Part shown: one piece after another, positions 5,664 to 37,239 of the stretch
Layout: each line of letters begins with the position of its first letter
How positions within the stretch are numbered: position 1 is the stretch's first letter
Assembly (NCBI GenBank): GCA_964607465.1
Contig: CAZSKS010000007.1
Coordinates: 15,507-79,506, forward strand
Direction: 5' to 3'
DNA from: an uncultured Gemmatimonadota bacterium
GTDB taxonomy: Bacteria > Gemmatimonadota > Gemmatimonadetes > Palauibacterales > Palauibacteraceae
DNA length: 64,000 nucleotides
The notes under the pieces: generated by a model
The model's input: only the letters and a program-made list of their open reading frames with translations
What the model was told of the DNA's origin: nothing
Databases searched by the model: none
Made by a program: the position numbers and the translations under genes

Positions 5664-8563
5664 GGGGAGCACGCCTTCCGCGCCACGGACCGGGCCTCCT
5701 CCCGCACGGCGTCGAGCGTGGCGTCCGCGGCTTCCAGGTGCCGCGCCGCCTCCCCGGCGAGACGGCACGCCGTGTCCGAACGCCCGCCGGCCAGGGCGGA
5801 GGCGGCGGCCTTCACCCGGGCCTCGGTCCCCAGCGCCCAGTCCACCTCCGCCGCCTGGACGAAGCGATCGCCGAAGGCCAGCTCGACGTCCGAGTTCTCG
5901 TGCCATCGCCACGAGGTCTCCGCTCCCCGCGAATCCCCGGTGGCGGCCTGCCACTCCCCTCGCAGGAGGAGCACGGAGGCTCGCTCGAACGGTCGGGCCA
6001 GGTGACCGGCCGAATCGTACGTCAGGAGCGGGGCGGACCACGCCAGGGCTTCCTCCGCGTCACCGGCGTGGGCCCGCGCGGCCGCCTCCAGCAGCCGTGC
6101 CTGCCGCTCCCTGCCCGGAACCGACGGCGGCAGCCGGTCCACGGCCCGACGCCAGCGGGCCGCCTCCTCCGTCCGCCCCTCCCGATAGGCCAGCAGGCCC
6201 AGGGCCGACGCCGCCCGGAGCCTGCCTACCGGTCGGCCGTCCCCTTCGGCGATCCGGGCGAGGGCGTCCCGTCCGTCCTCCCGTTCCTCCGCGGAGGGGC
6301 CCGTGAGACCGAGGGCCGGCGGCATCACCCGCCACTCGGCGGCCTGCAGGCGACCTTCGGGGACCCGGGAGGCGGCCGCCGCCGAGTCGAGGAGGGCCAG
6401 CGCCTCGCCGGTCCGGCCCATGGCGTGGAGGGCCAGGCCGGACATCACCTGCCCGTTCACGGGGTGGTCGCCCGACGTCGCGGCCAGCTCCGCCAGCCGA
6501 CGACCGAACGCGAGGGCCGCCTCCGGGAGGTCGAAGTAGGGGCCGGCCAGCCGACCGTACGTGGACAGGAACTGCTTCTCCCCGCCGGGAACCGCGGCCA
6601 GCAGGTCCCCCCGCCGGGCCGCGCCCTGGTGGGAGCGGAACCGTTCGAGCCAGGCGTGCCTCCAGAGGGTGGGAAAGTGCACGTCGACCTCGTCCACCGG
6701 GGCCGACACGGCATCCAGCCGGGACAGGTCCCGGAGAGCCTGCTCCTCGAGCCCCAGGCGGATCTCGGCCTGGACGATGTGGTCCACGATGGGGCTGAAG
6801 AAGGAATCCCGGGCGGCCGCGCGCCGGAGGACCGACAGCGCGCTGTCCGGCGTCACGCCGAAGAGGGGGCCGCGGTGCAGGAGCTCGTCGCCGTACAGCA
6901 GCGCCGCGTAGGCATCGTGCGGATAGTCCGCCAGGATCGCCTCGTACAGGACGTGCTGCTCCGGCCCGTGCGGGGCCAGGCGCGCCTCGAGCAGACGCCG
7001 GTCCAGGGGACCGAGCTGATCCCCGTCCTCCCCGCCGAGCCTCCGGAGATCAGCGCCCACCGGCCTCAGCTGCCAGCGGTGCACGTCCACGAGGCGCCAC
7101 CGGGCGAGGACGAAGGTGCTGTCCATGCCCAGGGCGTCCCGGTAGGCCTCCTCCGCCCGCCGCCAGGACGAGCGCTGGAACGCCTCTTCCCCCCGGAGGA
7201 AGGAGCGGATGGCCGGGAAGGGGCGGCCGGCCAGCGCGTCGGTGCCCGCGGCAGAGAGCACGCCCGACGGGAGGCCGGTGGCCTCCAGCCTCCGGATCAG
7301 CGCCACGGCCACCGAGTCGCCCAGCGTCACCGGCGGGTCGGTCGCCGGCCCCCGGACCACCGTGGCTCCGCGGGTCCGGCCGGAGGCGTCCTCCACCTCC
7401 AGCCTCGCCTCCAGGCTGTCGCCCCTGCGCAGGAGGGTGCAGCGAACCGTGTAGCGGCTGTCGAGGGCTCGCGCCGGCGCCTCGCCCTCCCCCGGGCCCG
7501 ACGGGCCGCGCGCCTCCCACCAGGCGAAGGCGGTCTGGGCCCGGGTCACGCGCAGGTCGGGCAGCCCCAGGAGGTCGAGCGTGACCAGGCGCGCCAGGTC
7601 GACCCCCAGGAGGCTGTCGGCGGTGGGGACGGTCTCACAGGGAAGGATCACGAGGTCCGACAGGGTCCCGGATCCTCCCGCGTTCCCGGCGTCGGAAGGT
7701 CCCGCGACGAGCCAGGCCATCACCGAGCCCGCGCCCAGCAGACCCAGGACCGCCGCCGCGACGAGCCTCCTGCGGAACCGGCGGGCTCCCACGAGAGCCT
7801 CCCGGAACGTTCCCGCGTCGGCCCAGCGGTCCTCCGGCCGCCGGGCCAGCGCCCTCTCCACCGCGTCCCGGAGCCCGGCCGGCACCTCCGACAACCGCCG
7901 GTCGGCCGGGTCGTCGGCGGTGGACCACCGACGTCCCGTGAGGGCCTCGTAGAGCACCAGGCCCGCGGCGTACACGTCCGACCGCGGGCTCGCGTCCCCG
8001 CCCGCCGCCACCTCCGGGGCCAGGTAGCCGGGCGTGCCGACCGTCTCCCCCGTCCGGGTGAGGGGCTCGCCGTCCGACGGGTCGGCGGCGGCGACCCCGA
8101 AGTCTCCCAGGACCGCCCGCTCCTCGGTGACGAAGACGTTCGACGGTTTCACGTCCCGGTGGACGACCCCCTCGGCGTGGACGGCGGCCAGGGCGGCCAG
8201 GAGGTCCCGACCCAGGCGCCGGGCCGCCTCCGTGTCCAGCGGACCCGCCTCCAGGCGCTCCCTCAGGGTGGGACCCTCGGCCAGGGCCAGCACCATGTAG
8301 TGGAGCCCCGACGCCTCCCCGACGTCGTGCACGGGCAGGAGGTTGGGGTGGGAGAGCCGGGCCAGGGTCCGGGCCTCGCGGAGGAACCGCTCGGCTCCGC
8401 GGGCGGTGGCGAGCTCCGGACGCAGGACCTTGATGGCGACGGGGCGGTCCAGCCGGCGGTCGCGGCCCAGGAAGACGTGGGCCATCCCGCCCGAGGCGAG
8501 CAGGCGCTCCACGTCGTAGTGGGAGGGAAGGCCCCCGCGGAGACGGCGGAGCAGGGCGGACAT
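5660..8563 (-). CDS. Ser/Thr protein kinase with one TM segment and a large C-terminal TPR-like domain
   Basis: ORF 5660..8854. Start placed at ATG 8563 ('MSALLRRL'). Hanks kinase motifs 'GGMAHVFLG...VAIKVL', 'HRDVKPSNVF', 'DFG'. TM segment 'LVAAAVLGLLGAGSVMAWLVAG'. Confidence 0.85.
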   Translation of the reverse strand: MSALLRRLRGGLPSHYDVERLLASGGMAHVFLGRDRRLDRPVAIKVLRPELATARGAERFLREARTLARLSHPNLLPVHDVGEASGLHYMVLALAEGPTLRERLEAGPLDTEAARRLGRDLLAALAAVHAEGVVHRDVKPSNVFVTEERAVLGDFGVAAADPSDGEPLTRTGETVGTPGYLAPEVAAGGDASPRSDVYAAGLVLYEALTGRRWSTADDPADRRLSEVPAGLRDAVERALARRPEDRWADAGTFREALVGARRFRRRLVAAAVLGLLGAGSVMAWLVAGPSDAGNAGGSGTLSDLVILPCETVPTADSLLGVDLARLVTLDLLGLPDLRVTRAQTAFAWWEARGPSGPGEGEAPARALDSRYTVRCTLLRRGDSLEARLEVEDASGRTRGATVVRGPATDPPVTLGDSVAVALIRRLEATGLPSGVLSAAGTDALAGRPFPAIRSFLRGEEAFQRSSWRRAEEAYRDALGMDSTFVLARWRLVDVHRWQLRPVGADLRRLGGEDGDQLGPLDRRLLEARLAPHGPEQHVLYEAILADYPHDAYAALLYGDELLHRGPLFGVTPDSALSVLRRAAARDSFFSPIVDHIVQAEIRLGLEEQALRDLSRLDAVSAPVDEVDVHFPTLWRHAWLERFRSHQGAARRGDLLAAVPGGEKQFLSTYGRLAGPYFDLPEAALAFGRRLAELAATSGDHPVNGQVMSGLALHAMGRTGEALALLDSAAAASRVPEGRLQAAEWRVMPPALGLTGPSAEEREDGRDALARIAEGDGRPVGRLRAASALGLLAYREGRTEEAARWRRAVDRLPPSVPGRERQARLLEAAARAHAGDAEEALAWSAPLLTYDSAGHLARPFERASVLLLRGEWQAATGDSRGAETSWRWHENSDVELAFGDRFVQAAEVDWALGTEARVKAAASALAGGRSDTACRLAGEAARHLEAADATLDAVREEARSVARKACSP

Positions 8564-12455: not shown

Positions 12456-13887
12456 AGGCCGCCTCCAGGGCCGCGTCCGCCTCCGGGGCGGCGTCCGCCG
12501 AGCAGGCACCCGTCTCCGGGAGCGCCAGCTCCACGCTCCGGGCGGCCGCCTCGTCGCCGGCCAGGGCGGCCACCACGGAGCGGACCTGCTCGTAGCCGGT
12601 GGGGAGCAGGAACGTGGGGGCCCGGCCGTAGCTCTTCATCCCCACCAGGTAGAAGCCCGGCTCCGGATGGCGGAGCTCCGCCTCGCCGTGGGCCGGCACG
12701 GTGCCGCAGGAGTGGACGTTGGGATCGATCAGGGGGCCGAGCTGCCGGGGCGCCTCCGTCAGCGGATCCAGGTCCAGCCGCAGCTCGCGCAGCATCTCCA
12801 GGTCGGGCCGGAAGCCGGTCACGCCCACGATCCGGTCCGCCGCGAGCGTCCGGCCGTCGTCGTCCACCAGGAGGACCGCATCCTCCCGCTCCCGCACGGC
12901 CACGGTCCCGAAGCCCGTCACCATCCGCACCTTCCCGGACTCGACCAGCCGGCCGAGCCGCCGCTCCAGCGCCCCCCGGGCGGCGAGCTCGTCGTCCCGG
13001 TCGTCCCGGAAGATCCGCTCGGGCCGCTCGCCCCGCAGGATCCACAGGGGCTCCGTCTCCGGGGCGTCCTCCGACAGCCGAACGAGGTCCAGGAGCACGT
13101 TGGCCGCCGAGTGGCCGGCGCCCACCACGGCGGTCCTCCGGCCGGCGTAGCGCTCCCGGTCGTCTCCGAGGACGTCCGGGAGGCCGTACTCGATCCGATG
13201 GGCCGCGGCCTCCTCGCCGACGGCCGGCAGCCCGTGGGCCCCGAGGGGCCGGGGTCGGGTCCACGTCCCCGACGCGTCGATCACCGCCCGGGCCCGCAGG
13301 TGGCCCGGCGTCCCGCCCGTCTCGTAGCGCAGGAGGAAGGGAGCCTCCCGCCGGTCGTCCCGCCCCTTGAGGCGGTCCCGACCCACCCTCGTGACCCCGG
13401 TGACGCGGTGCCGGTAGTGGATCACCCGCCGGATCTCCGGCAGATCCGCCAGCGGCTCCAGGTACTCCTTCACGAGATCGTCACCCGTGGGAAGCTCGTC
13501 CGGCGGCGGGGGCGTCCAGCCGGCCGACTCCAGCATCTCCTTCGCCACCGGATCCAGGCACAGCTCCCACGGCGAGAACAGGCGGACATGACCCCACTCC
13601 CGGACCGAGGCCCCGGCCGCGGCGCCGGCCTCCAGCACGACGGCCGGCTGTCCCCGCCGGACCAGGCGGGCGGCGGCGGCGAGGCCCACGGGCCCGGCGC
13701 CGATGACCGCCACCGGAAGCTCCTCCCCCTCGGACGCGTCGGCCCCGGTGCCGCCGGACGACACGGCAGCCCGCTCCAGCAGGTGCGGCGGGGCGCAGCA
13801 GGCCGACGCCACCGTCTCTTCCTCCTCTCGGGACGAGAAGCGATCCCTCAGGGACATGATCAGGGAAGACACGTGATCGAGATTCAT
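12448..13887 (-). CDS. FAD/NAD(P)-binding oxidoreductase (flavin monooxygenase-like) with a Cys-Cys N-terminal extension
   Basis: ORF 12448..14055. Start placed at ATG 13887 ('MNLDHVSS'). Dinucleotide fold 'VAVIGAGPVGLAAAARL' and a second 'VVGAGHSAANV'. N-terminal 'SACCAPP'. Confidence 0.75.
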   Translation of the reverse strand: MNLDHVSSLIMSLRDRFSSREEEETVASACCAPPHLLERAAVSSGGTGADASEGEELPVAVIGAGPVGLAAAARLVRRGQPAVVLEAGAAAGASVREWGHVRLFSPWELCLDPVAKEMLESAGWTPPPPDELPTGDDLVKEYLEPLADLPEIRRVIHYRHRVTGVTRVGRDRLKGRDDRREAPFLLRYETGGTPGHLRARAVIDASGTWTRPRPLGAHGLPAVGEEAAAHRIEYGLPDVLGDDRERYAGRRTAVVGAGHSAANVLLDLVRLSEDAPETEPLWILRGERPERIFRDDRDDELAARGALERRLGRLVESGKVRMVTGFGTVAVREREDAVLLVDDDGRTLAADRIVGVTGFRPDLEMLRELRLDLDPLTEAPRQLGPLIDPNVHSCGTVPAHGEAELRHPEPGFYLVGMKSYGRAPTFLLPTGYEQVRSVVAALAGDEAAARSVELALPETGACSADAAPEADAALEAACG

Positions 13888-13952
13888 TGATCCAACTTTC
13901 TTTATGTGAAGGGCCAAAAAAACGTACGGGCCCGACCGGGAGCCACCTCGCG

Positions 13953-14297
13953 TCACGCCGTGGCGAGCGGCCGGGCCGCCACGGCATCGCCCAGGCCGTC
14001 CATGAAAGCCCGGAGCGTCTCCAACCCGTCCTTCGAGACCCGGTAGTGCACCCACCGGCCGCGCCTCTCGGCCGCCACGAGGCCGGCCTCGCGCAGGACC
14101 TTCATGTGGTAGCTCGTCGCCGGCTGGGAGAGGTCCAGGTGGTCCTGGACGTCACAGGCGCACACGGCGTCGTCCGCCCCCGGCCCGCCCGGCTGGCGCC
14201 ACGCGATGAAGCGCAGGGCCCGGAGCCGGCGGACGTCGCTCAGCGCGCCGAAGACATCGGCCAGCCGCTCGTCGTCGATCGTGCTTTCGTCGCTCAT
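13953..14297 (-). CDS. ArsR/SmtB family transcriptional regulator
   Basis: 114 aa. wHTH 'LSQPATSYHMKVLREAGLV'. 'VCACDV' sits at the position of the ArsR CxC metalloid site. Confidence 0.85.
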   Translation of the reverse strand: MSDESTIDDERLADVFGALSDVRRLRALRFIAWRQPGGPGADDAVCACDVQDHLDLSQPATSYHMKVLREAGLVAAERRGRWVHYRVSKDGLETLRAFMDGLGDAVAARPLATA

Positions 14298-14392
14298 GAT
14301 AGATCAAGCTTATTTTATGTGTGGGGCGCTGTCAAGCGACGGGGTCCCGTCGCCCGGGGGACGGACCCGGCGGCGCCCCGTTCGCCGCCCGC

Positions 14393-15307
14393 CTACTTGC
14401 CGCCGTTCGCCTGCAGGTCCACGATTCCCAGCGAATCGAGCGGGGGCACCTCGCCGCCCTGCAGGTTCTGGATGAAGTCGGTGGTCTCGACCTGGTGGTA
14501 CATGAGGGTGCCCTCCTCCGTGCAGTGGGCGCCGTTCGCCGCGTCGTGGTGGTCGTTCGGGCCGCCCTCCTCCCCCTGCATGGGCGTGCCGCTGTTCACC
14601 AGCCCGAGGATGTGGCCCATCTCGTGTCGGATGGAGGCCGCCTCGATGACCTCCCTCGGGGGGGCGCCGACCCCTCCGGTGTTGTCGCGGATCACCTCCT
14701 CGAAGATCGCCATCGACGTGTTGAAGTACGCGATCCCCAGCACGTTCTGCTCCTCGAACTCGCCGTCCAGGAAGAGATAGTAGGCGGCCAGCTCGCTCCC
14801 CTCGGTGAAGGTGTCCCGGTGGGTCCCCTCGAGGTCCCGCACCTCGTCGGCCGAGTAGGGGCTCTGTCCCGGCGAGGGGATCGCGTCGTCCAGGACGACG
14901 CTGACGCCGCCGGGCTTGTGCAGGCGGCGCTCGAGGAAGACCCGGAGGCTGTCGACGGCCTCCGGGCTCGGCTGGAGCCCCTCCACGTGGTCGATCTCGA
15001 CGGTGAGGCTCGTGAACGTCTCGTCCGACAGGAAGGCCCGGGCAGACGCCCCCGGCACCCGGGTGTGGGAGAAGCCCTGGCCCCCGTCGCCGCCGGTGTC
15101 GTCGTCCCCGGGCCCGGTGGCGCCGTCGCCGCAGCCAGCCGCGAGGGCGAGGAGCGCGGCGGACAGCAGGAGACGCCCCGACGTACGGGCGAGCGGGAAG
15201 GATCGGGAGGGCGGGAGGGATCGCGCGGGCGGTCGTTCGAGGGCGGACGGGGGCGCGGTCACGGAGGGGCACCCGACGGCGGTTCCGAGCTGACCGGGGC
15301 TTCGCAT
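14393..15307 (-). CDS. Putative zinc metalloprotease lipoprotein (HExxH)
   Basis: ORF 14393..15451. Start placed at ATG 15307 with GGAGGA upstream. Lipobox 'LLALAAGC'. Zincin motif 'IRHEMGHILGL'. Confidence 0.65.
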   Translation of the reverse strand: MRSPGQLGTAVGCPSVTAPPSALERPPARSLPPSRSFPLARTSGRLLLSAALLALAAGCGDGATGPGDDDTGGDGGQGFSHTRVPGASARAFLSDETFTSLTVEIDHVEGLQPSPEAVDSLRVFLERRLHKPGGVSVVLDDAIPSPGQSPYSADEVRDLEGTHRDTFTEGSELAAYYLFLDGEFEEQNVLGIAYFNTSMAIFEEVIRDNTGGVGAPPREVIEAASIRHEMGHILGLVNSGTPMQGEEGGPNDHHDAANGAHCTEEGTLMYHQVETTDFIQNLQGGEVPPLDSLGIVDLQANGGK

Positions 15308-15361
15308 GCGAGCTGATCCTCCCCTGTCGTAGGTCCTTGCCGTCACCCCGTGCGGCCTCCC

Positions 15362-15478
15362 CGCGGGGCGGGATTTTCTGACCGAAGGGAACGTCCCTTC
15401 ACAAGCGGCCTCAGGCTCATCAGAAATGCGACGGTCCCGGGATTCCTGCAACCTGCACCGACATCACCGCTCGACGTC
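15362..15478 (-). repeat. Decayed third copy of the tRNA-Ile 3' fragment plus island arm (att remnant)
   Basis: Hand alignment: 15404-15457 vs 22619-22672 gives 46/54 identities, with weaker similarity to about 15478/22694. T-arm-like 'GGGATTTTCTGACC' at 15369-15383. Inserted 7-bp hairpin GAAGGGA-acg-TCCCTTC at 15384-15400. Confidence 0.55.
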
Positions 15479-15568
15479 GGGCTCGTCGAGGAACGGGCCT
15501 CTCCCGGGGAACGAATCCTCTCCGTCAGAGCCGCGAATCCGGAAGCGGCAGTGAATCGTGGTAGGCTT

Positions 15569-16096
15569 TCAAGACGAGGAGTCGGACGAGGGCGGGCCGT
15601 TCTCGCTCCGCGCGAACACTTCCTCGGAGGTGAGTCCGTACAGCGCGGGCGTTTCCACGGAGACCATGCGGAGCATGAGATAGAGCTGTCCCCGGTGGTG
15701 GACCTCGTGCTCGATCATCGCTCGCAGCCATTTCCAGGTGCGGAGCTCGGCTCCGGCGGGCGTGGTGCAGGGACGCTCCAGGTCGGCGTCGGTCAGCTCC
15801 CCGTACAGCTCGAACGCCTCCCGCCGGCACCGTCTCCAGAAGGCCCGCACTTCTTCCGCGCCCTCGGCCAGCTCCGGACCGTGGCCGGGATACCGGCTGG
15901 GCCGCCCCCGCACGTTCTCGGCGAACATGTAGCGCTCCAGCGCCGCGACGTGCCGAACGAGGTCGGCGAAGGAGAACGCCTCCGGCTCCGGCCGCCAGTC
16001 GAAGCGACCGTCCGGGACGAGGTCCACGACCCGCTGCGTTCGTTCCCGGACCCGGGCCAGATAGTCCACGAAAACGTCGATCGACCGGATCTCCAT
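15569..16096 (-). CDS. DinB-family protein
   Basis: 175 aa. DinB-type His triad context 'LVRHVAALERYMF' ... 'MIEHEVHHRGQLYLMLR'. Confidence 0.8.
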   Translation of the reverse strand: MEIRSIDVFVDYLARVRERTQRVVDLVPDGRFDWRPEPEAFSFADLVRHVAALERYMFAENVRGRPSRYPGHGPELAEGAEEVRAFWRRCRREAFELYGELTDADLERPCTTPAGAELRTWKWLRAMIEHEVHHRGQLYLMLRMVSVETPALYGLTSEEVFARSENGPPSSDSSS

Positions 16097-16126
16097 GTCA
16101 CTCCCTCCAGATCTGCCGTGGGGACT

Positions 16127-16681
16127 TCACCTGTCGAGAATCGGCAGGTAGGTACGCCAGGGGCCGACCGCCTCCCGGTACTGCTTGGAGACGACTCTCG
16201 CGATCTGAGCCAGATGACTCAGGTCATGCGTGGTCCACGTGGCCAGCAGCTGCCGGAGGCTGACGCGCCCGAGGGCGGGATGCTCTCCCTCGAGGCCCAG
16301 CTGCTCCTCCGACAGATCCCAACTCCGCAGCGTCGAGAGGTTCTCCGCCCTGAGCTCGGTGAATTCATCGAGAACCGCCGTCATGCTCTTGCCCTCGCTC
16401 TCCTCGCAGTGAGCGAAGCGGTCGAGCGGAGGAAAGGTCACGTCCGAACCGTGCTCGAGGATGGTGCGAGCGCGCTGGATCCAGTTCGTACGCTCGGTAT
16501 GGACCAGGTGAGCCACGTTGTCGAAAGCGCTGAACGTGTCGGCGCCCTCGTTCGGTGTGGTCCACTCCCCGGAGAGACCTTCCAGGAGAGCCCGGAGCAC
16601 GCCGGGGGTGCGTTCGAGGATCTCGAGCGATCGGGTCAGATTGAACTCCATCGCCATGCCCCGTGAGTTCATCGCGTTCAT
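16127..16681 (-). CDS. DinB_2-like protein
   Basis: 184 aa. 'FSAFDNVAHLVHTE' ... 'LATWTTHDLSHLAQI'. The true start may be ATG 16657 or 16651. Confidence 0.75.
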   Translation of the reverse strand: MNAMNSRGMAMEFNLTRSLEILERTPGVLRALLEGLSGEWTTPNEGADTFSAFDNVAHLVHTERTNWIQRARTILEHGSDVTFPPLDRFAHCEESEGKSMTAVLDEFTELRAENLSTLRSWDLSEEQLGLEGEHPALGRVSLRQLLATWTTHDLSHLAQIARVVSKQYREAVGPWRTYLPILDR

Positions 16682-17162
16682 GGGTGAGGATCGGACGGCA
16701 CTGCGCTCCCGCGCGTGAACGGCTTCCGACCAGGCGGTCGGCCAGTCGGTCCACGGTGCGCCGCACGCTCTCGGGGACGCGGACCGTTTCCCAGCCTTCA
16801 GAGGCGGCGGATGCGCGTCTGGAGCGTGCGATGATCCTTACGCTGTCGTCGCCGCTGAGGACCGAGACGTCGCTGACGACGAACGTCGAGGACCCGTCGT
16901 CGGCCAGCTCGAACTTCTCCCCGGAGATGAGCCCGGCTCTCACGTCGATGATCTTCATGTCGAATCCGAACGTCTCGAGACAGCGGCGCGCCTCGCTCAA
17001 CGGACGCTCGAACGCCGGAGAGGGGGCCACGCTGGACGTGTACTCCGTAAGGGCGCCCGCGCAGGCGGCGAGAGCGACGGCCGTCACGCCGATCCACGGA
17101 GAAGCCGGGTGGGGGCGTCCGAGTCGGACACGGGAGGCCAGCTTCGACACCTCGGTATCCAT
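16365..17162 (-). CDS. Hypothetical exported protein. The formal ORF overlaps the DinB_2 gene by about 290 nt, so the 3' end is doubtful.
   Basis: The N-terminal ~160 codons look protein-like ('VTAVALAAC', 'KIIDVRAGLISGEKFELADDGSSTFVVSDVSVL'). The remainder reads like out-of-frame translation of the neighbouring gene. Confidence 0.3.
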   Translation of the reverse strand: MDTEVSKLASRVRLGRPHPASPWIGVTAVALAACAGALTEYTSSVAPSPAFERPLSEARRCLETFGFDMKIIDVRAGLISGEKFELADDGSSTFVVSDVSVLSGDDSVRIIARSRRASAASEGWETVRVPESVRRTVDRLADRLVGSRSRAGAQCRPILTHERDELTGHGDGVQSDPIARDPRTHPRRAPGSPGRSLRGVDHTERGRRHVQRFRQRGSPGPYRAYELDPARSHHPRARFGRDLSSARPLRSLRGERGQEHDGGSR

Positions 17163-17165
17163 CCC

Positions 17166-17666
17166 TCACCTCTGCGAGCTGGCCTCGGGCGGCGCCTCGA
17201 GCCGCTTCTCGAACCAGTGGTGGGCGTAGGGCTCGTCGTTGAACGGCTCGACTTCCTCGTAGCCCGCCGACCGATAGAGGCGGATCGCCTCCGTCAGCGT
17301 CCGGTTCGTCTCCAGCCTGACCTTCGTGACGCCACGGAGCCGCGCCTGCTTCTCGAGCTCGTCCAGGAGACGCCGTCCGAGGCCGAGGCCACGGGTCGCC
17401 GGGTCCACCCACATGCGCTTGATCTCCGCCGGATCGTCCCCGTGGAGCTTCAGGGCCCCACACCCGACCGGGTCCCCGTGAAGGCGGGCGAGCAGGAGGA
17501 GTCCTTCCGGCTCGGTGAGCTCATCGGCGTCCGCCGAGATGCTCCGATCGGGATCGAACCCGTCCTCGAAGCGACCGTCGAGCTCGTCGAAATAGGCGTC
17601 GAGGCAGTACCGGGCGTCGTCGCTCGTAGGGTCGGCGACTTCGAACTCCAGCCTGTCGTCGTCCAT
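17166..17666 (-). CDS. GNAT family N-acetyltransferase
   Basis: ORF 17166..18632. Start placed at ATG 17666 behind AAGGAGA. Acetyl-CoA motif 'RMWVDPATRGLGLGRRLLDELE'. Confidence 0.85.
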   Translation of the reverse strand: MDDDRLEFEVADPTSDDARYCLDAYFDELDGRFEDGFDPDRSISADADELTEPEGLLLLARLHGDPVGCGALKLHGDDPAEIKRMWVDPATRGLGLGRRLLDELEKQARLRGVTKVRLETNRTLTEAIRLYRSAGYEEVEPFNDEPYAHHWFEKRLEAPPEASSQR

Positions 17667-17692
17667 TTCTCGTCTCCTTCCGACAGCCGGGC

Positions 17693-19408
17693 TCACAGCC
17701 CGAGCGTGCCCTGGACCACCGTCACGGCGCCGCCCCCGACACGTACTCGCCGTACGTCGGAGGGAGGGCCCTGGACCTCGACGCAGGCCCGCCCGGGACG
17801 CCCCATCCCGTGCCCCTGCTCGGCGACGAAGCACGGCCCGTCGAGCAGGCCGTGCCGCCAGAGATGAGCGGCCATGGCCCCCGTGGCCGAGCCGGTGAAC
17901 GGGTCCTCGAGCGTATCGGGCGGGACCCCGAAGTGACGGGCGTAGGTCGCGGCCTCCTCGGAGATGCCCGGGAGGCAGTAGAGGTGCGGGCTGAAGAAAT
18001 CGCCCTGGCCCCTGAGCCTCCGGTAGGCGTCGATATCCATGCGGGCCCGGCGCAGCGCCTCCAGATCGACCACCCGGACCATGAGCATGGGGGTGCCGGT
18101 GCTCACCGTCTGAACCGGCGGTTCGTCGAGCACGTCGCGAGGGTCCAGACCCAGGGCGTCCGCCACGGGCGCCGGGTCGTAGATCCGACCCCATTCGGGC
18201 GGACGCTGCGTCATGGTGAACCGCAGCTCCTCCCCGTCCGCGGACACGTCGACGTCGACTCCCCCGGCCGGCAGGGCGAGGTGGACCTCCGCGCCGCCCC
18301 GATCCACCTCGACACGGTCCGTGTCGACCAGCGCCCTGACCGTCGCCACCGTGGGATGCCCGGCGAACGGAATCTCCTTCTCGGGCGTGAAGTACCGGGC
18401 CCGGAAGGCGTTTCGATCGGAGGAGTCCCGCCAGACGAACGCGGTCTCCGACAGGTTCGTCTCCCGGGCGAGCGCCTGCATCTCCGTGTCGTCGAGACCC
18501 TCCGCGTCCAGGACGACCGCGCACGGATTCCCTTCCAGCGGCCGACGTGTGAAGGCGTCGACGATCAGGAACGGGTGGGTATCGCCGGGGGAGGGGATCC
18601 GCTCCGACCACGGTTGTTCCGGAGACCTCCACTCGCCGACGGACGCGTCGAAGACGTCGGCGAGGCCGGAGATCCGTCCGTCGGGCCGCCGGAAGTCGAC
18701 GGTGGACGAAGGCTCCGGTTCCTCATCCGCGACGAGGATTCCGGTGAGCCCCGCCCGATGCGCCCCCAGGACGTCGGTGTCCGGCCGGTCGCCGATCACG
18801 ACGGCGCGCTCACCCTCGGGCACGCCCTCCAGCGCCATCTCGAACATCCTAGGCTCCGGCTTGCCCACGATGATCGGTTCGACCCCCGTCGCGGTCTCCA
18901 CGGCGCGAACGATCGCGCCGGCGCCGGGCGCGGGACCGTCGGCCGTCGGAAAGGATCCGTCGGGATTGGTCCCCACGAACGTCGCCCCCCGGTCGATGTG
19001 CCGCACGGCGCGCCGGATGTCCCGATAGGTGGTCCGTTCGTCCGCTCCGACCACGACGGCGTCCGGGTCGCCCTCCGTGAGCCGGAGGCCCTGGGCTCGC
19101 AGCTCGTCCCTCAGTCCATCGCTTCCCACCGCCGACACCGTTGCGATGTCCCTGCGGCTCAGGTAGCGGGCCGTCGCCCAGCCGGACGTGACGATCTCCT
19201 CGGTACCGACCCGGATCCCGAGGTCGCCGAGGTGGCGGGCGATCGTCTCTCGCCGGGGCCGCGGATCGTTGGTCAGGTAGCGGATCTTCTTTCCCATGCG
19301 GCCGAGCCGGTGCAGGGATTCCACGGCGCCCGGCAGGGGCTCTCCCCCGAGGTAGACCACCCCGTCGAGGTCGATCAGGAAGACGTCGAAGCGCTCGGCG
19401 ATCGTCAT
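17693..19408 (-). CDS. Fusion protein: HAD-IIA (NagD-like) phosphatase + PhzF-family isomerase
   Basis: N-terminal half 'FLIDLDGVVYLG...YLTND...GKPEP...IGDRPDTD' shows HAD motifs I-IV. C-terminal half 'FLIVDAFTRRPLEGNPCAVV...LSETAFV' is PhzF-like. Alternative GTG start at 19438. Confidence 0.8.
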   Translation of the reverse strand: MTIAERFDVFLIDLDGVVYLGGEPLPGAVESLHRLGRMGKKIRYLTNDPRPRRETIARHLGDLGIRVGTEEIVTSGWATARYLSRRDIATVSAVGSDGLRDELRAQGLRLTEGDPDAVVVGADERTTYRDIRRAVRHIDRGATFVGTNPDGSFPTADGPAPGAGAIVRAVETATGVEPIIVGKPEPRMFEMALEGVPEGERAVVIGDRPDTDVLGAHRAGLTGILVADEEPEPSSTVDFRRPDGRISGLADVFDASVGEWRSPEQPWSERIPSPGDTHPFLIVDAFTRRPLEGNPCAVVLDAEGLDDTEMQALARETNLSETAFVWRDSSDRNAFRARYFTPEKEIPFAGHPTVATVRALVDTDRVEVDRGGAEVHLALPAGGVDVDVSADGEELRFTMTQRPPEWGRIYDPAPVADALGLDPRDVLDEPPVQTVSTGTPMLMVRVVDLEALRRARMDIDAYRRLRGQGDFFSPHLYCLPGISEEAATYARHFGVPPDTLEDPFTGSATGAMAAHLWRHGLLDGPCFVAEQGHGMGRPGRACVEVQGPPSDVRRVRVGGGAVTVVQGTLGL

Positions 19409-19453
19409 CCGCGCTCCCCCGGTCGGCCCGATCGTCACGACCCGACGATGCCT

Positions 19454-20947
19454 TCAGGCATCGACCGCGGCCACCTTCCGGTCCCTTCGGACCTCCTCCC
19501 CCAGCCGCACGGTCTCCTCGACCAGACGATCGAAGTCCTCCCTCCGGGTCCGGTGATTGGTGTTCGCCACCCGCAGGACGAATCGGCCGTCGAGGACGGT
19601 GCTCGACGGGACGGCGATGCCCCGCTCCTGGAGCCGCATGAGGATCTCCCGGTTCAGGTCGTCCTCCTCCTCGGCGGAGAAGCCCGGCACGGTGTACCGG
19701 AAGCACACGATGCAGAGCGGCACGGGTGCCATGAGCTCGAGGTCGGGATGCTCCCGGACCCGTGAGGCCAGGTACCGGGCCTGCTCGACACATTTCTCGA
19801 CCACGTGTCCGAAGTGGCGGATGCCGTGCTCGCGGATCGACATCCAGACGCTGAGAGCACGGAATCCTCGCGACAGCTGCGGACTCAGGCGATCGGTGCT
19901 CTCGGGTCTCGCCGCCGTGCCCCGGGGCAGGGCGCTCAGGTAGGAGGCTTCCACGGTGAAGGTCGTCCGGTGGGCCTCGCGGTCCCGCACGAGAATGACC
20001 CCGACGTCGTAGGGTGCGGACATCCACTTGTGGGCGTCGAAGGCGAGCGAGTCGGCCCGCTCCATGCCTGCCACGAGGGGCCGGAGGTCCGGCGCCAGCG
20101 CCGCGAGCGCCCCGAACGCACCGTCGACGTGAAGCCACAGGTTCTCTCGCTCCGCCACGTCGGCCAGCGCCCCGAAATCGTCGAAGGCCCCGGTGTCAAC
20201 GGTACCGGCGGATCCTACGAGGATCGCCGGCGAGACGTCGCTCCCTTCCCTCAGGTCCTCCGTCAGCATGTCCTCGAGGACATCGACCCGGATCCGGTGG
20301 TCGTCGTCGACCGGAACCCGTCGGAGCGCGCTCCGCCCCATCCCGAGAATCTGGAGCGACTTCTTCACCGACGAGTGGACCGCTTCAGAAGCGTAGACGC
20401 CGAGCCTCCGCCCCTCGGCGACCAGTCCGTCTCTCGGCACGTCCGCCCTCGCGACCGCGTCCCGGCCCACGGCCAGTCCGATCAGGTTCGCCACGGATCC
20501 ACCGCTCGTGAGGACGCCCCCGGTCTCCTCCGGCATGCCCATGGCCTCACGAAGCCAATCGATGACCTGGGCTTCGACGCGAGCCGACGAGTCGTTGAAC
20601 GGCCCGGTCACGGCGTTGACCCCGGCGGCCAGCAGCTCGGCGATGATGCCGCCCGGCGTACCCTGGCCGGGGACCCATCCCCAGAAGCGAGGATGCGGAT
20701 TCCCCAGCACGTAGGGGTAGACGGTCTCCCGGAACGCGCGAAACGTCGCTTCGATCCCCTCGCCCTCGGCAGGAAGAGGGGCCTGCAGCCGTGCTTCTTC
20801 CTCCGGCGGCATGGGGCGCCATACCGGCTGATCCGCGATCTTCTCCTGGTAGTCGAGCATCAGGTCCAGGGCCTCGTGAGCCACCCGTCGATGGGTCGTC
20901 CAGTCGACGGGATCCAGTGAGACGAAGGTGCTCTCGTCGTCGCTCAT
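19454..20947 (-). CDS. Group II pyridoxal-dependent amino-acid decarboxylase
   Basis: ORF 19454..20992. Start placed at ATG 20947. 'SGGSVANLIGL' and the PLP-lysine context 'SLAFDAHKWMSAPYDVG'. Confidence 0.85.
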   Translation of the reverse strand: MSDDESTFVSLDPVDWTTHRRVAHEALDLMLDYQEKIADQPVWRPMPPEEEARLQAPLPAEGEGIEATFRAFRETVYPYVLGNPHPRFWGWVPGQGTPGGIIAELLAAGVNAVTGPFNDSSARVEAQVIDWLREAMGMPEETGGVLTSGGSVANLIGLAVGRDAVARADVPRDGLVAEGRRLGVYASEAVHSSVKKSLQILGMGRSALRRVPVDDDHRIRVDVLEDMLTEDLREGSDVSPAILVGSAGTVDTGAFDDFGALADVAERENLWLHVDGAFGALAALAPDLRPLVAGMERADSLAFDAHKWMSAPYDVGVILVRDREAHRTTFTVEASYLSALPRGTAARPESTDRLSPQLSRGFRALSVWMSIREHGIRHFGHVVEKCVEQARYLASRVREHPDLELMAPVPLCIVCFRYTVPGFSAEEEDDLNREILMRLQERGIAVPSSTVLDGRFVLRVANTNHRTRREDFDRLVEETVRLGEEVRRDRKVAAVDA

Positions 20948-20981
20948 GGCTATTCTCTTCCGTCCTGCGATGGCCTCCTGT

Positions 20982-21036
20982 GATTGATGCAATCGAGACT
21001 ATAGGGTTGACTCAATCATGTCAATAACATAGATTG
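20982..21036. promoter_or_regulatory. AT-rich divergent control region with GATTG/CAATC repeats (candidate MocR operator)
   Basis: GATTG-ATG-CAATC at 20982-20994. TTGAC-N8-GTCAA at 21007-21024, containing CAATC at 21013-21017. GATTG again at 21032-21036. Confidence 0.35.
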
Positions 21037-21041
21037 TACTT

Positions 21042-22430
21042 ATGACAATGTGGGTTCCTGACCTGACGTCGGCCGACACGAAATCCGAGGCCATCGCGGA
21101 AGCGATCGCCCGGGACGTCGAGCAGGGGACGCTCCGTCCCGGCGACCGGCTCCCGCCTCAGCGCCGGTTGGCCGAGCGGCTCGGGCTGGCCGTCGGTACG
21201 ATTAGCCGGGGGTACGGAGAAGCCGAGGAGCGCGGACTCGTGGTCGGAGAGGTCGGCCGCGGAACCTTCGTCCGCCGTCCGGAGTCGCTGGAACGCTGGA
21301 GCCGGGACACGGGCGGAGGGGACGAGGTCATCGACCTGGGTCTGAACCTCAATGACCTCCTGCCCCGCGAGGAAGAAGCGGGCCTCTTTTCGGAGACCCT
21401 GCGGGCGATCGCCGACGGCCACACGGAGCCGCTCCTGCGGTACCGCCCGGACACCGGGCTGCCGTCGCACCGGTCCGTGGCGGCCCGGTGGATCCGTCGT
21501 ACCGGGCTGGAGGCTTCCCCCGAGAACATCGTCATCACGGCCGGGGCCCAGCACGCCCTGTCGGTGATTCTCTCACACCTTCTGCCCTCCGCTGCCGTCC
21601 TCCTCACGGCCCAGCTCACCTATCCCGGGCTGAAGTCGCTGGCCCAGTCCTACGGGGTGAGGATCAGGGGCGTGGAGATGGACGAGGAGGGGATCACCCC
21701 GGACGCGCTCGAGGAGGCGTGCACCAGGGTGCCCGAGCCGGCAGCCCTGTACCTGGTCCCTACGATCCAGAACCCCCTGGGAGGCACGCTCTCTCCGGCG
21801 AGGCGGGACGCGATCGCCGAGATCGCCGAGCGCCATGACGTGCTCGTCGTCGAGGACGACATCCACGCCCACCTGACCGAGGATCCGCCCCTCCCCCTCG
21901 CGGCGCGCGCGCCCGAGAGGACGCTCTACCTGCAGGGGTTCAGCAAGGTGCTGAACATCGGCCTCCGCACCGGATTCGTCGCCACCCCGACGGCCCTGCT
22001 GGAGAAGCTGCGCGCCGGGGTCCGCTCGTCGCTCTGGATTCCCGCTCCGTTGATGGCGGAGATCACGTCCCGCTGGATCCAGGAGGGGACGGCGGACCGG
22101 ATCATCGAGGAGAAGCGTGCGCGCCTGTCCGAACGTCAGACGTCCGCCCGGGAGATTCTGGACGGATTCGACGTCCTCGGCGATCCGAGGGCGAGCCACC
22201 TCTGGCTGCGCCTGCCGGAGGGATGGCGGAGCGACCAGCTCGTCCAGCAGGCGGCGGATCGCCAGGTGAGGATCACCGGTGCCGGGGCGTTCACCGTCAC
22301 CCGTGACGTGCCGGCCGGCGTCAGGCTCTCCCTCGGTCGGCCGGGCTCGCTCGAGGAGATGGCCGCCGGAGTCGAGACGATTCGGGAGATCCTGGAGGAA
22401 GGTCCTGTTTCCTCGACGACCGTGATCTGA
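21042..22430 (+). CDS. MocR/PdxR-type regulator (GntR wHTH fused to an aminotransferase-fold domain)
   Basis: 462 aa. N-terminal 'LPPQRRLAERLGLAVGTISRGYGEAEERGLV'. Long class-I aminotransferase-like C-terminal domain. Divergent from the decarboxylase gene. Confidence 0.85.
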   Translation: MTMWVPDLTSADTKSEAIAEAIARDVEQGTLRPGDRLPPQRRLAERLGLAVGTISRGYGEAEERGLVVGEVGRGTFVRRPESLERWSRDTGGGDEVIDLGLNLNDLLPREEEAGLFSETLRAIADGHTEPLLRYRPDTGLPSHRSVAARWIRRTGLEASPENIVITAGAQHALSVILSHLLPSAAVLLTAQLTYPGLKSLAQSYGVRIRGVEMDEEGITPDALEEACTRVPEPAALYLVPTIQNPLGGTLSPARRDAIAEIAERHDVLVVEDDIHAHLTEDPPLPLAARAPERTLYLQGFSKVLNIGLRTGFVATPTALLEKLRAGVRSSLWIPAPLMAEITSRWIQEGTADRIIEEKRARLSERQTSAREILDGFDVLGDPRASHLWLRLPEGWRSDQLVQQAADRQVRITGAGAFTVTRDVPAGVRLSLGRPGSLEEMAAGVETIREILEEGPVSSTTVI

Positions 22431-22462
22431 AGCGGCAGGTGATCGAACAAGCCCGCTTTCTT

Positions 22463-22639
22463 GCCGTACGGCGATCCATGCGAAGGCGAGGAAGACGTCG
22501 CACCGACCGTGGACGATCGGCCGACTGGCACGTCTCACCGGATGGACAGGGGATGGACAGGGCGCCGAAGGGAGCAGGGAACGGCGCCGGGAAAAGTGGG
22601 CCGGGCTGGATTTGAACCAGCGGCCTCACGCTTATCAGG
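22463..22639 (-). repeat. Direct repeat copy A: 134-bp arm + 3' 43 nt of tRNA-Ile (distal att-like site)
   Basis: Base-for-base identical to 37031-37207 (offset 14568). The tRNA part is 22597-22639. It lacks the tRNA 5' half. Confidence 0.9.
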
Positions 22640-22932
22640 AACGTGACGGCCCCGGGAATCCTGCATCCTGCAGCACATCCACCGATCGAGCGTGCGATCT
22701 GCCGCGGATTCCCGCCCTGGGGCTGCAGCCTGCAGACGGGCGCTGACAGTACTTGACGGTATTCCCCGGCTCCGTCGTTCGGGCCCAGGTTCGCACTCCC
22801 AGGCGACCGGAACCTCGGTTCGATGTCGGAATCCGAATTTGTTGGGGGGCGCGCGAGCGATCAGGATTACGGTTGACGGGCAAGCGCCGGACCTCATTCC
22901 CATGGCCGCTCATTGCCGCCGGATACTGCACC

Positions 22933-24672
22933 CTACGGCTGACCTGCTTCCTGATGGACGCCTCCGCGCCTGAGGGCCCGGCCCGGAAAGGCGCCGGTAT
23001 GCTCTCCGTCGCGTAGCACCTGTTCCCCGTTCACGAACACATGCTTCACGCCACTGGCGTACTGGTGCGGCTCAGCGTACGTGGCGTGGTCCTGAATCGT
23101 GCCAGAATCGAACACGACGATGTCGGCGAAGCGACCGGGTTGGATGCGTCCGCGATCGGTCAGCTTGAACTGATCCGCAGGCAACGAAGTCATGCGACGG
23201 ATGGCCTCCGGCAGCGACAGAACGCCTTCAACGCGGACGAACTGACCGAGAACGCGAGCGAACGTCCCATAGCCGCGAGGATGGACTCGGGACTCCAGGA
23301 ACCGACCTTCGGCCGCCACCGACGGTTCGTCGGATCCGAAGAACACCCACGGTTGCTCCAGCTTCTTTCGGACGTTTTTCTCGGACATCAGGAAGAAGAC
23401 GGTCTGGACCGGGCTTCTGTCTTCACGGACCAGATCGAGGATCGTGGTTTGGGGGTCCGTGCCCCGCTCTCCCGCGACGTCAGCCAGCGTCCGCCCCTGG
23501 AGCCCCTTCAGCCGCTCCGTGCGGAAGTCGACGAGGAGCACGTCGTCGGGAGTGCCCGACAGCTGGCAGTAGTTCTCCCATTCGTCCTGCTGGCGGCGCA
23601 TATCCGCGATCATTCGACGGCGGGCCTCGGGATCATCGAGCCGTCGATACAGGGAGTCCGGCCCTCCCTCGTGGGCCCAGGGAGGGATACATGCCGACAG
23701 GCCGGTGGAACCCGCCCGGTAGGGATACATCGTGGCTGTCAGGTCCATGCCCCGAGACCTGTGGCTCTCTACCAATGACAGAACGGAGTCCAGCTTCGGC
23801 CAGTTCTGGATTCCAGCTGCCTTGAGATGGTAGATCGTGGCCCCGGCACCCGTTCTGTCCGCAATCTCGAGGAGCTCTCTCACGGCGGGAATCAGGTCGG
23901 CACCCTCGCTCCGAACATGAGAGATATACCGCCCTCCAAGTCTGGCGGCCGACCGCGCCAGGGCGGTTAGCTCACGAGTCGTAGCATAGCTGGCCGGGGC
24001 GTATGCGAGGCGACTTCCGACCCCCAGAGCTCCCGCCTCCATGGCATCTTGCACCAGCTCCCGCATCCGGTCGAGCTCGTCGTCCGTCGGGCGCCGGTCC
24101 TCGTCACCCAGCACATGCTGTCGGATCGTGGTGGCCCCGACGAAGGAGGCAACGTTGGGCGTCACCCCTCGTTCCTCCAGGTGCTCCAGATGCCCCCTCA
24201 GGGTCGTCCAGTCGATGTTGTAGCCCGGAGGCGGATAGTCCCGGTCGGCAGAGGTCTCCAATCGCCGCCGGAGCTCCTCGTTCAAGGGCCCCATCGTAAT
24301 GCCCTCGCCGAACACCTCGGTGGTCACGCCTTGCTTCAGGTCGCTCATCGAGCGACCGTCACGCAACAGGCTGCCTGTCGCCCAGCTGTGAGCGTTGATG
24401 AATCCGGGAGCGACGGCCAGGCCGGAGACGTCGAGGCTCAATGTCCCCCGCGATGGATCGATGTCGCCGACGGCCGCAATCCGATCGCCGTCGATCGCGA
24501 CGTCGACGATCCGCCCCTCGGCCCCCGTCCCGTCGAACACCGTACCTCCGTACAGCACCACATCGAAGACATGATCGCCCTGTGGCTCGCCCGCGCAGCC
24601 GGCGGCAAGCATCGTGGCGAGGAGAAGAGGGACCAAGGGCAACCGTCGGCTGGCGCCGGATCTCACGATCAT
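22933..24672 (-). CDS. N-acyl-D-amino-acid deacylase (D-aminoacylase) family amidohydrolase, lipoprotein
   Basis: 579 aa. Lipobox 'LLLATMLAAGC'. N-terminus 'DVVLYGGTVFDGTG...IAAVGD...APGFINAHSW' is typical of the family. Confidence 0.8.
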   Translation of the reverse strand: MIVRSGASRRLPLVPLLLATMLAAGCAGEPQGDHVFDVVLYGGTVFDGTGAEGRIVDVAIDGDRIAAVGDIDPSRGTLSLDVSGLAVAPGFINAHSWATGSLLRDGRSMSDLKQGVTTEVFGEGITMGPLNEELRRRLETSADRDYPPPGYNIDWTTLRGHLEHLEERGVTPNVASFVGATTIRQHVLGDEDRRPTDDELDRMRELVQDAMEAGALGVGSRLAYAPASYATTRELTALARSAARLGGRYISHVRSEGADLIPAVRELLEIADRTGAGATIYHLKAAGIQNWPKLDSVLSLVESHRSRGMDLTATMYPYRAGSTGLSACIPPWAHEGGPDSLYRRLDDPEARRRMIADMRRQQDEWENYCQLSGTPDDVLLVDFRTERLKGLQGRTLADVAGERGTDPQTTILDLVREDRSPVQTVFFLMSEKNVRKKLEQPWVFFGSDEPSVAAEGRFLESRVHPRGYGTFARVLGQFVRVEGVLSLPEAIRRMTSLPADQFKLTDRGRIQPGRFADIVVFDSGTIQDHATYAEPHQYASGVKHVFVNGEQVLRDGEHTGAFPGRALRRGGVHQEAGQP

Positions 24673-25031
24673 CAGGGAGAGCGGTCGTCGGGATCGTGAG
24701 GACGAAGCGGCATGTCATGGGCCTCGCTCAACGTCGACGTCTTCGTTTTCGGACCAGGGAGCGGGCCGAAGCGTCGACTCGATCGGGAAGCGCGATGACC
24801 AAAACCCCTTCTTCGGTGTCCCTGCGGACCAGTGTCACGGAGGATGGTGGCTTCGAATGGGTCGACTGCAGCCGCCACGAGGACCCGATGCGCTCTTCGA
24901 CCCGCAGGAGCGATCTGGCTGAAGCCAACGAATACCCCGACATGGTCATCGCCCTCGCGATCGGGGAAATTGCCCTGGCGACTCTTCTGGCGAGGAATGA
25001 AGTGCGTGGTCTCGCAGCGGAGAGCCGTCAC
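24672..25031 (-). CDS. Hypothetical 119-codon ORF bridging the operon gap (doubtful)
   Basis: The GTG start overlaps the upstream stop (GTGA). Its TGA overlaps the downstream ATG (TGATG). The product has no recognisable motif and is Arg/Pro-rich. Confidence 0.25.
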   Translation of the reverse strand: MTALRCETTHFIPRQKSRQGNFPDREGDDHVGVFVGFSQIAPAGRRAHRVLVAAAVDPFEATILRDTGPQGHRRRGFGHRASRSSRRFGPLPGPKTKTSTLSEAHDMPLRPHDPDDRSP

Positions 25032-28166: not shown

Positions 28167-28170
28167 GTCT

Positions 28171-29949: not shown

Positions 29950-30036
29950 GGGGAACCTCTGCAGATCCGAGGGAGCGCAGCCGGTCGATGATGACGATCG
30001 CAACGGCCGCCCGCTCAGGAAGTGTTGGGAGTGGTA

Positions 30037-31287: not shown

Positions 31288-31358
31288 CTTCCTACTCCCC
31301 TACCCTGTCAATGTCTGGTCTGAGCGACCGAAGCAGTGCCAACGAACAGCACGCGGCA

Positions 31359-34397: not shown

Positions 34398-34685
34398 CCT
34401 GCTCCCCTGCGGTTCGAAATGAGCGTCCCCGTTGGCACACCCAAACGGAAGCGTGCGAACGACCGCGACGAGCCGCGGCTACCAAGACGACGCCGCTCGG
34501 ATCTACTTCCCTTCCTTCATAGTCCAGACAGCGTACATGGCGGAATCGGAGTCGAGGGATTGTGTCCACCCGCAAAGTGAGATCTTCTCCGAAGGCTTCC
34601 CGGCGAACCCTCGCCCCGTGCAGCTGCTGGTCCCTCGGAGAAGCTCGGAGGGAACCACGCGAGCAACTACGTGTATCGTAGGCGT

Positions 34686-34701
34686 ATTTCGTATCCGAAA
34701 T
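34686..34701 (+). promoter_or_regulatory. Candidate operator site 1 (ATTTCG-TATC-CGAAAT)
   Basis: Palindromic 16-mer in the susC/gntR divergent region. Shares an exact 13-mer with site 2. Confidence 0.4.
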
Positions 34702-35693: not shown

Positions 35694-35704
35694 ATCCGTG
35701 AGGC

Positions 35705-37030: not shown

Positions 37031-37239
<209 letters not shown>

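Follow-up and report, generated by a model that had tools for sequence, protein, structure and literature searches.

Introduction

Islander defines tDNA islands as lying between an intact tRNA gene and a displaced 3' fragment of that gene in direct orientation. The collection holds 125 tandems of two or more islands, and the crossover is centred on the anticodon in 2083 of 3919 islands (PMC4383910). In Dehalococcoides, arrays of tandem islands are found downstream of one small-RNA gene, ssrA, and each island is bounded by a direct repeat of the 3' end of that gene. Fifteen of these islands have no integration module, and it was proposed that they can be mobilised in cis; the island content is strain-specific (PMC3146451). 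In streptococci, accretion of CIMEs and ICEs related to ICESt1 and ICESt3 has been described (Pavlovic 2004, Bellanger 2011), with tandem elements at one attachment site, as reviewed in PMC5704250. Tandem accretion at a tRNA or tmRNA gene, with integrase-less members included, is already established in other phyla. In integrons, cassettes without an integrase, whose recombination sites are rich in inverted repeats, are added at one fixed site.

Here we analysed a 64-kb stretch of DNA (the window, to which positions refer unless a relative is named) from a metagenome-type contig of 81,740 nt; the relatives compared with it were all MAGs. Judged by its sequence, the locus is a tRNA-Ile island array in Gemmatimonadota that is made only of integrase-less modules, and tandem accretion of such islands at tRNA-Ile is well supported. 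No paper on tRNA island arrays in Gemmatimonadota came up in a full-text literature search.

Results

Host genome and composition of the locus

BipA/TypA, DnaE and other core genes of the window had their best matches in MAGs of uncultured Gemmatimonadota/Longimicrobiales, with at most 82% protein identity, and the host is probably a Longimicrobiales-like member of Gemmatimonadota. The window has a single tRNA gene, tRNA-Ile(GAT), which we take as the putative anchor (attB) of the array. It is located downstream of BipA/TypA (38839-41334), and this linkage is kept in five relatives (L001, L004, L006, L090 and L092); the locus searches based on BipA returned few close relatives. The main features of the locus are as follows.

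14393-15313, minus strand: lipoprotein gene with an HExxH metalloprotease motif, the conserved left flank (translation; probable start 15310)
15479-22430, no strand assigned: island 1, about 7 kb, 65-71% GC (Pfam; GC3 0.83-0.89)
22640-37030, minus strand: island 2, 14.4 kb, 60-66% GC (Pfam; GC; absence in L001 and L086)
37164-37239, minus strand: intact tRNA-Ile(GAU) (ARAGORN; Rfam tRNA 74.4 bits)

A further lipoprotein gene (37543-38292) adjoins the tRNA gene. None of the four genes flanking the array (this lipoprotein, an acidic ORF, BipA and the HExxH lipoprotein) encodes a recombinase. The small ORF beside BipA (38404-38763) has a very high content of Asp, Glu and Trp. The BipA frame has no stop for about 180 codons ahead of the conserved GTPase domain; in DNA of such high GC content, this is probably no more than a long open frame. 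A native high-GC SusC gene is also present in the window (58787-61954).

The GC content was 73-77% in the flanks, 65-71% between 15 and 22.6 kb and 60-66% between 22.6 and 37 kb. GC3 was 0.90-0.98 in the flanks and core; island 1 had values of 0.83-0.89 and island 2 of 0.75-0.80. This stepwise drop in GC and GC3 from the core to island 1 and further to island 2 favours accretion.

Three copies of a tRNA-derived repeat

The longest direct repeat of the window pairs 22459-22639 with 37027-37207 (181 nt, one mismatch). Its perfect core of 177 nt (22463-22639 and 37031-37207) consists of tRNA positions 33-76 (44 nt) and an arm of 133 nt past the 3' end of the tRNA. An earlier note on this DNA had described an identical arm of 134 bp and was right about it; the perfect part is the 133-nt arm together with the 44 nt of tRNA. 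The tRNA fragment of the displaced copy (22596-22639) is in direct orientation and identical to tRNA-Ile at 44 of 44 positions. The three copies were designated A to C from left to right.

15363-15484, minus strand: repeat unit A, a shortened arm (15425-15484) joined to a 3' part resembling that of tRNA-Ile (15363-15424)
22463-22639, minus strand: perfect 177-nt repeat, copy B, a displaced tRNA-Ile 3' part (22596-22639) and its arm (22463-22595)
37031-37207, minus strand: perfect 177-nt repeat, copy C, the 3' part of the resident tRNA (37164-37207) and its arm (37031-37163)

Att-like repeats are thus found at both ends of each island, with copy A diverged and interrupted. The tRNA-like part of copy A agrees with tRNA positions 33-53 at 18 of 21 bases and continues with a T-arm and an acceptor strand; an insertion of 22 nt after T54, with a palindrome at 15384-15400, splits the T-arm/acceptor region. 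The count of 46 matches in 54 positions given earlier for 15404-15457 against 22619-22672 was exact. We performed the formal local alignment that had been proposed as a check, 15300-15600 against 22440-22760, and it selected 15401-15477 and 22616-22693 with a score of 82, far above chance (shuffled sequences gave a mean of 19.4 with a standard deviation of 2.5 and a maximum of 31). The similarity was also said to continue past the tRNA, and it does so for about 55 nt beyond the tRNA-derived part. This non-tRNA stretch was significant on its own (22645-22689 against 15430-15474, 84.8% identity, E = 1e-6). An nhmmer profile made from all five copies known from the window and its relatives found 15363-15484 at E = 1.6e-32, a score that is partly circular. 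Chance similarity of the copy at 15.4 kb was ruled out by the alignment against shuffles, the non-tRNA match and the profile.

Related loci at the same site

The same site was compared in relatives, as the earlier note had suggested. In L001, whose core genes are 80-81% identical to those of the window at the DNA level, the tRNA-Ile gene is followed after 93 nt by the MocR gene of island 1, so that the right end of island 1 adjoins the tRNA and island 2 is absent. The MocR gene of L001 was 83% identical to that of the window. As it is about as diverged as the core genes, island 1 probably predates the split from L001, which fits with its description as the older island.

Both islands are absent in L086, a JGI contig (3300040785) that carries both flanks. 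L086 1-359 corresponds to window 37537-37162 (85%), including tRNA-Ile, and L086 10038-10888 corresponds to window 15230-14383 (91%), which is the HExxH lipoprotein gene, followed by a weaker match (83%) over 15272-15313. The tRNA-Ile flank and the lipoprotein gene are 9.6 kb apart in this relative. Starting from tRNA-Ile, the order is YafQ/RelB, a Zn-peptidase and, further on, GerE, then a copy of the arm and tRNA unit, a HigB-HTH_3 pair and a second unit, after which come a hypothetical gene, a Gly-zipper gene, an AraC gene and the lipoprotein gene. The L086 array is accordingly composed of three modules with two displaced copies, next to the two islands with three tRNA-derived copies of the window. 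In L083 the arm is followed by an HTH_3-HigB pair that is 89% identical to the module of L086, with different neighbours. The toxin-antitoxin modules are very small (YafQ/RelB at L086 472-1014; HigB/HTH_3 at L086 6376-7048 and L083 3710-4334).

L085 was 96.6% identical to the window over 12626-15313 and then continued into the Gly-zipper gene, as in L086. Homology to the relatives stops at 15313, the outer edge of the variable region. The boundary at 15362 that had been given earlier was therefore moved: by comparison with L085 and L086, the variable region begins at 15314. The array content differs between the window, L001, L083, L085 and L086. From these alignments everything between 15314 and 37163 is variable, with modules that are present or absent independently of each other and whose ends coincide with the units.

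Gene content of island 1

Pfam identified in island 1 two DinB-family genes, a hypothetical gene, a GNAT gene, a HAD-PhzF fusion, a PLP-dependent decarboxylase and a MocR-type (GntR-aminotransferase) regulator. L083 was 90.6% identical to window 18909-22463. In L081, L082 and L084 the homology to the MocR cluster ends at the MocR stop codon or at most 14 nt from it, the right-hand neighbours differ, and there is no tRNA in the contigs; in all four contigs, L081 to L084, the right-hand neighbours of the cluster are other than those of the window. The MocR-regulated cluster itself is a mosaic (L081 572-7024, L082 4741-11389, L084 2-5388) that combines, in varying ways, the HAD-PhzF fusion, the PLP decarboxylase, a Cys/Met-metabolism PLP enzyme, a cupin, a MarR-GNAT fusion and DinB genes.

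Conserved core synteny of this segment in genomes with no tRNA-Ile nearby, the outcome that had been set against the island proposal, was not what we found: the MocR cluster is absent in L086 and its neighbours differ. In L085 the cluster does not adjoin the lipoprotein gene.

Gene content and origin of island 2

Island 2 begins with the region 22640-22761 (arm55 in the following), and its gene locus spans 22933-36712. The genes recognised with Pfam were an amidohydrolase, two M19 dipeptidases, a proline-racemase family enzyme, an S15 X-Pro dipeptidyl peptidase, SusD, SusC, a GntR/FCD regulator and a proline dehydrogenase. By these families the island is predicted to be a complete SusC/SusD-type locus for the utilisation of proline- or hydroxyproline-rich peptides.

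The cluster was found with 85% identity in L171 and L172 and with 82% identity in L170. L170 has a uniform GC content of 66%, and its cluster lies beside OmdA, RibD_C and CrcB genes with no tRNA. This chromosomal position in a 66%-GC contig fits with import from a lower-GC relative, and the cargo of island 2 is an ordinary chromosomal locus of such relatives that was captured into a 74%-GC genome.

In an independent sample, the cluster was present with 99.99% identity on L169, a Logan contig of 14,101 nt (aligned span window 37060-25705). The first base of L169 corresponds to window 37060, some 30 nt into the repeat, where a k-mer branch would be expected. By arithmetic, its other end should be near window 22960, just past the amidohydrolase stop codon and not at the repeat, which points to variation between strains of that sample in the left end of island 2.

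These data also bear on the quality of the assembly. Island 2, with 62% GC, could have been misjoined through the 177-nt repeat into the 74%-GC chromosome, while its true place would be in a different strain, at a different site or on an extrachromosomal molecule. The GC content drops sharply at both repeat copies, the contig is of the metagenome type with only MAGs as relatives, and contigs from other samples break at or near the repeat, as L169 does at 37060. However, L169 continues from island 2 into the 133-nt arm, and arm55 is contiguous with island 2 and with the tRNA 3' part, as in the independent assemblies L086 and L083. Even a misjoined island 2 would carry the arm, the tRNA part and the 133-nt arm, that is an attP-like junction, and the join has no bearing on the third copy at 15.4 kb. 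An assembly artefact is improbable on this evidence.

Anatomy of the arm and tRNA unit

Five copies of the unit from three genomes were aligned (window A, window B, one in L083 and two in L086). Read in the tRNA sense, the unit starts with an arm of up to about 130 nt with several inverted repeats, which in window A is cut to about 60 nt. It is followed by five bases, CNCRT, which mimic the 5' strand of the anticodon stem, and then by the tRNA part. In all five copies, the match to tRNA sets in precisely with the first base of the anticodon loop, the boundary also seen in anticodon-centred tRNA attachment sites such as those counted by Islander (PMC4383910). The arms were 79-87% identical in sequence across genomes. 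Both the common start at the anticodon loop and the CNCRT mimicry of the stem would favour site-specific integration, with the crossover presumably at this position.

The T-arm-like stretch and hairpin of copy A (15363-15403) had been read earlier as signs of decay. Both structures are real, but decay is not the explanation, since they belong to a conserved repeat variant common to two L086 copies. The copy A stretch that includes them is 79% identical over 112-113 nt to L086 5965-6077 and 7160-7271, and a homologous 22-nt hairpin insertion after T54 is found in three of the five copies (window A and both in L086, 6011-6081 and 7211-7276). If functional tRNA ends had simply been displaced, such a conserved insertion in the T-loop would not be expected, and it counts against repeated integration.

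In the L086 unit at 7211-7276, the T-stem is GGAGG/CCTCC instead of the GCTGG/CCAGC of the resident tRNA, a difference of two compensatory pairs. The unit may accordingly stem from a different tRNA-Ile allele, or the stem may be under selection. If it is another allele, segments of the array would have been imported from another host.

In L004, a more distant Gemmatimonadota MAG, a low-GC island of 7.5 kb lies between two tRNA-Ile copies (7500-7640 and 15068-15250). It encodes a glycosyltransferase, an LPG-synthase-like protein and methyltransferases, and is without an integrase. Each of the two tRNA-Ile copies has about 65 nt of upstream sequence, and in the distal copy about 47 nt of unrelated sequence have been inserted at this T-loop position too (after T54).

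The conservation of the unit might also mean that it is functional or mobile in its own right, as a tRNA-derived small RNA gene or a MITE-like repeat, and that 15.4-22.4 kb is ordinary core DNA. The sequence conservation of 79-87% across genomes, the inverted repeats and the copy with compensatory T-stem changes agree with this, as do the homologs of the MocR cluster in the L081 and L082 contigs with no tRNA-Ile nearby. The searches went against it. No Rfam family matched the arm or the unit, and none of the 23 pairs predicted by RNAalifold on the arms showed covariation, which ruled out a structured RNA in the arm. All five copies are inside tRNA-Ile arrays and in the orientation of the tRNA, and a profile search of 170 other loci (172 in all) and the rest of the window detected no further copy. 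The MocR cluster, moreover, is missing at the L086 site, is not beside the lipoprotein gene in L085 and has different neighbours every time. We therefore regard an independent unit as highly improbable.

The 133-nt arm and the number of events

In L086, L001 and L090, nothing homologous to the 133-nt arm follows tRNA-Ile, and the explanation of the arm as a native tRNA trailer was ruled out on this ground. In L083, the MocR stop codon is followed by a degenerate core and then directly by the arm55 sequence, without the 133-nt arm. The 177-nt copy B is exactly the block that is absent in L083. This junction contradicts the earlier pairing of the arm at 22463-22595 with the end of island 1, and it implies at least three events or, alternatively, a homologous (Campbell-type) insertion. 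A perfect repeat of 133 nt past the tRNA is not produced by a site-specific event alone. The duplication could have come about by three routes: deletion may have left no more than the arm of an earlier element whose tRNA-proximal arm was the same, island 2 may have been inserted twice in tandem with later deletion of the distal copy, or a circle sharing the 177 nt may have been inserted by RecA-type Campbell recombination.

Two short stretches beside the 177-nt repeat were also inspected.

22431-22462, minus strand: spacer between the MocR stop codon and copy B, positional homolog of the degenerate core of L083
37019-37031, minus strand: candidate pseudo-core where the 133-nt arm ends on its outer side (9/13 match)

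A fourth tRNA remnant at 22431-22463, as suggested by the L083 junction, was rejected; local alignment to the tRNA was no better than with shuffles. The sequence CACGCCGGTCTGG at 37019-37031 matches the core of the anticodon stem-loop, CACGCTTATCAGG, at 9 of 13 positions, a level reached or exceeded by about 7e-4 of the 13-mers of the window. We tentatively consider it a candidate pseudo-core or secondary recombination site.

The arm leads to the question of how much homologous recombination has contributed. The present arrangement could have been built by it, with the units as relics of one or a few ancient integrations. Modules would then have been swapped, duplicated and deleted by RecA-type recombination between the units and the conserved flanks, and island 2 would have entered as a circle or linear fragment that shared the 177 nt, by Campbell-type insertion or by allelic replacement from a sister strain. 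The extent of the perfect 177-nt repeat, 133 nt past the tRNA, speaks for this, and so does the lack of an integrase in the islands and the rest of the window. In addition, the L086 array can be derived from an L083-like array by one crossover between two arm and core repeats, and the cargo of island 2 is a normal chromosomal cluster in L170. However, tRNA parts that start precisely at the anticodon loop beside a conserved arm at every module end are left unexplained, and so is the unit with a foreign tRNA-Ile T-stem. Some site-specific events would still be required at the origin, so that homologous recombination complements repeated integration more than it replaces it; that it built the arrangement by itself is unlikely.

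Search for a recombinase

The islands lack integration and transfer genes. With Pfam, no recombinase domain was found in any ORF of the islands (15.3-37.2 kb) or in the other 42 kb of the window, in agreement with the earlier claim that both islands are devoid of recombination genes. Long intergenic frames searched with Pfam at E <= 1, and searches with PHROGs and against PDB sequences, gave no recombinase either, and one hidden in an unannotated ORF or intergenic frame was thereby ruled out. There was also no recombinase in about seven modules of related loci, including those of L086, L083 and L004, and no integrase in the tRNA-Ile neighbourhoods of L006, L090 and L092.

The earlier note had further proposed to look for the same arms beside an integrase in another element. 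This search came back empty: the arm patterns had no match among viral contigs and none in a metagenome collection, the latter being a weak negative as the collection evidently lacks the source contig of L086. With no recombinase in the modules or their neighbourhoods, the catalytic step is inferred from the anatomy alone.

Discussion

Our main reading, to which we assign a probability of about 0.68, is accretion by site-specific integration, with an integrase that acted in trans or has since been lost. According to this reading, modules acquired horizontally would have built up at 15314-37163 into an array that varies between strains and lies downstream of a stand-alone tRNA-Ile(GAU) gene. 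At its end distal to the tRNA, each module would carry an att-type scar consisting of an arm (55-130 nt) and a tRNA copy from the first anticodon-loop base to the 3' end. Such a pattern would be characteristic of site-specific integration that occurs again and again in the 3' half of one tRNA gene, and in which the incoming element restores the tRNA and displaces the previous 3' part with everything behind it. The MocR/DinB island (15.5-22.4 kb) would have arrived first, followed by an element with the 133-nt arm, whose sole remnant would be the arm at 22463-22595, and island 2 (22.6-37.0 kb) would have come last. The modules would resemble cis-mobilisable elements, inserted by an integrase that is encoded elsewhere or has been lost, and they may be mobile still; recombination between the repeated units would later have reshuffled or deleted some of them.

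The earlier proposal was of two islands that used one tRNA-Ile in succession, an older one at 15.4-22.6 kb and a newer one at 22.6-37.2 kb. Its core stands, but its scheme of two events would have to be extended by a third event or by a homologous insertion. That the two islands belong to one family holds for the arm of about 55-130 nt; the cargoes are unrelated, and the island 2 cluster occupies a non-tRNA site in L170.

There is a small chance that the locus is a tRNA-anchored cassette system, in which integrase-less modules of 0.7-14 kb, each with a unit of about 190 nt, are shuffled by a remote recombinase. The unit of such a system would join an arm with inverted repeats to the 3' half of a pseudo-tRNA-Ile that has a T-loop hairpin and has kept its T-stem. 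We keep this option because the conserved T-loop insertion is unexplained and recombinases are wholly absent.

The array shows an uncultured high-GC soil or sediment lineage gaining whole metabolic loci by stacking them at one tRNA gene, in this case a SusC/SusD-type locus for proline/hydroxyproline peptides. The unit of arm and tRNA offers a sequence tag with which the missing recombinase and further modules can be sought in complete genomes.

The likeness to streptococcal CIME accretion that had been drawn earlier is borne out, as the array works alike, and the ssrA arrays of Dehalococcoides are even closer. The inner elements of the streptococcal structures are described as having lost integration and transfer genes while keeping att-type repeats, and the composite structures as being lost or moved as blocks (PMC5704250). 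The target there is the 3' end of a protein gene, fda, whereas here it is a tRNA; a known integrase is present there on the neighbouring ICE and excision experiments are reported, whereas here no ICE, IME or integrase was seen. The array here also differs in its host, a member of Gemmatimonadota, and in its cargo of whole metabolic loci.

With Dehalococcoides, the array has in common the extra conserved bases beside the repeat and the tandem, strain-specific islands (PMC3146451). The repeat there is of 20 bp, with insertion inferred in the T-loop of the tmRNA, whereas here 44 nt of tRNA are joined to an arm of 55-130 nt. In addition, 16 of the islands there have a module with a serine recombinase (DsiB) (PMC3146451), and here none was seen in any member.

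The features of an Islander island, namely an intact tRNA, a displaced fragment and absence in relatives, were all found here. Unlike those of Islander, the fragments here have a conserved T-loop insertion or an extension of 133 nt past the tRNA. Islander requires an integrase for each island, and the array would be filtered out (PMC4383910). As standard island finders have this requirement, arrays such as the present one would escape them.

Like an integron, the array consists of integrase-less modules that end in a conserved, site-like sequence rich in inverted repeats. Unlike an integron, it has no adjoining intI, and its modules are multi-gene, up to 14 kb long, with their own regulators and with genes in both orientations. 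When we looked for intI/attI beside the array and for structural conservation of the attC type, neither was found; the site here is conserved in sequence, not in structure, and contains a tRNA fragment. If the cassette reading were true, the locus would be a functional analogue of the integron in Gemmatimonadota, built on a tRNA gene with operon-sized cassettes whose cargo ranges from toxin-antitoxin pairs to whole catabolic loci.
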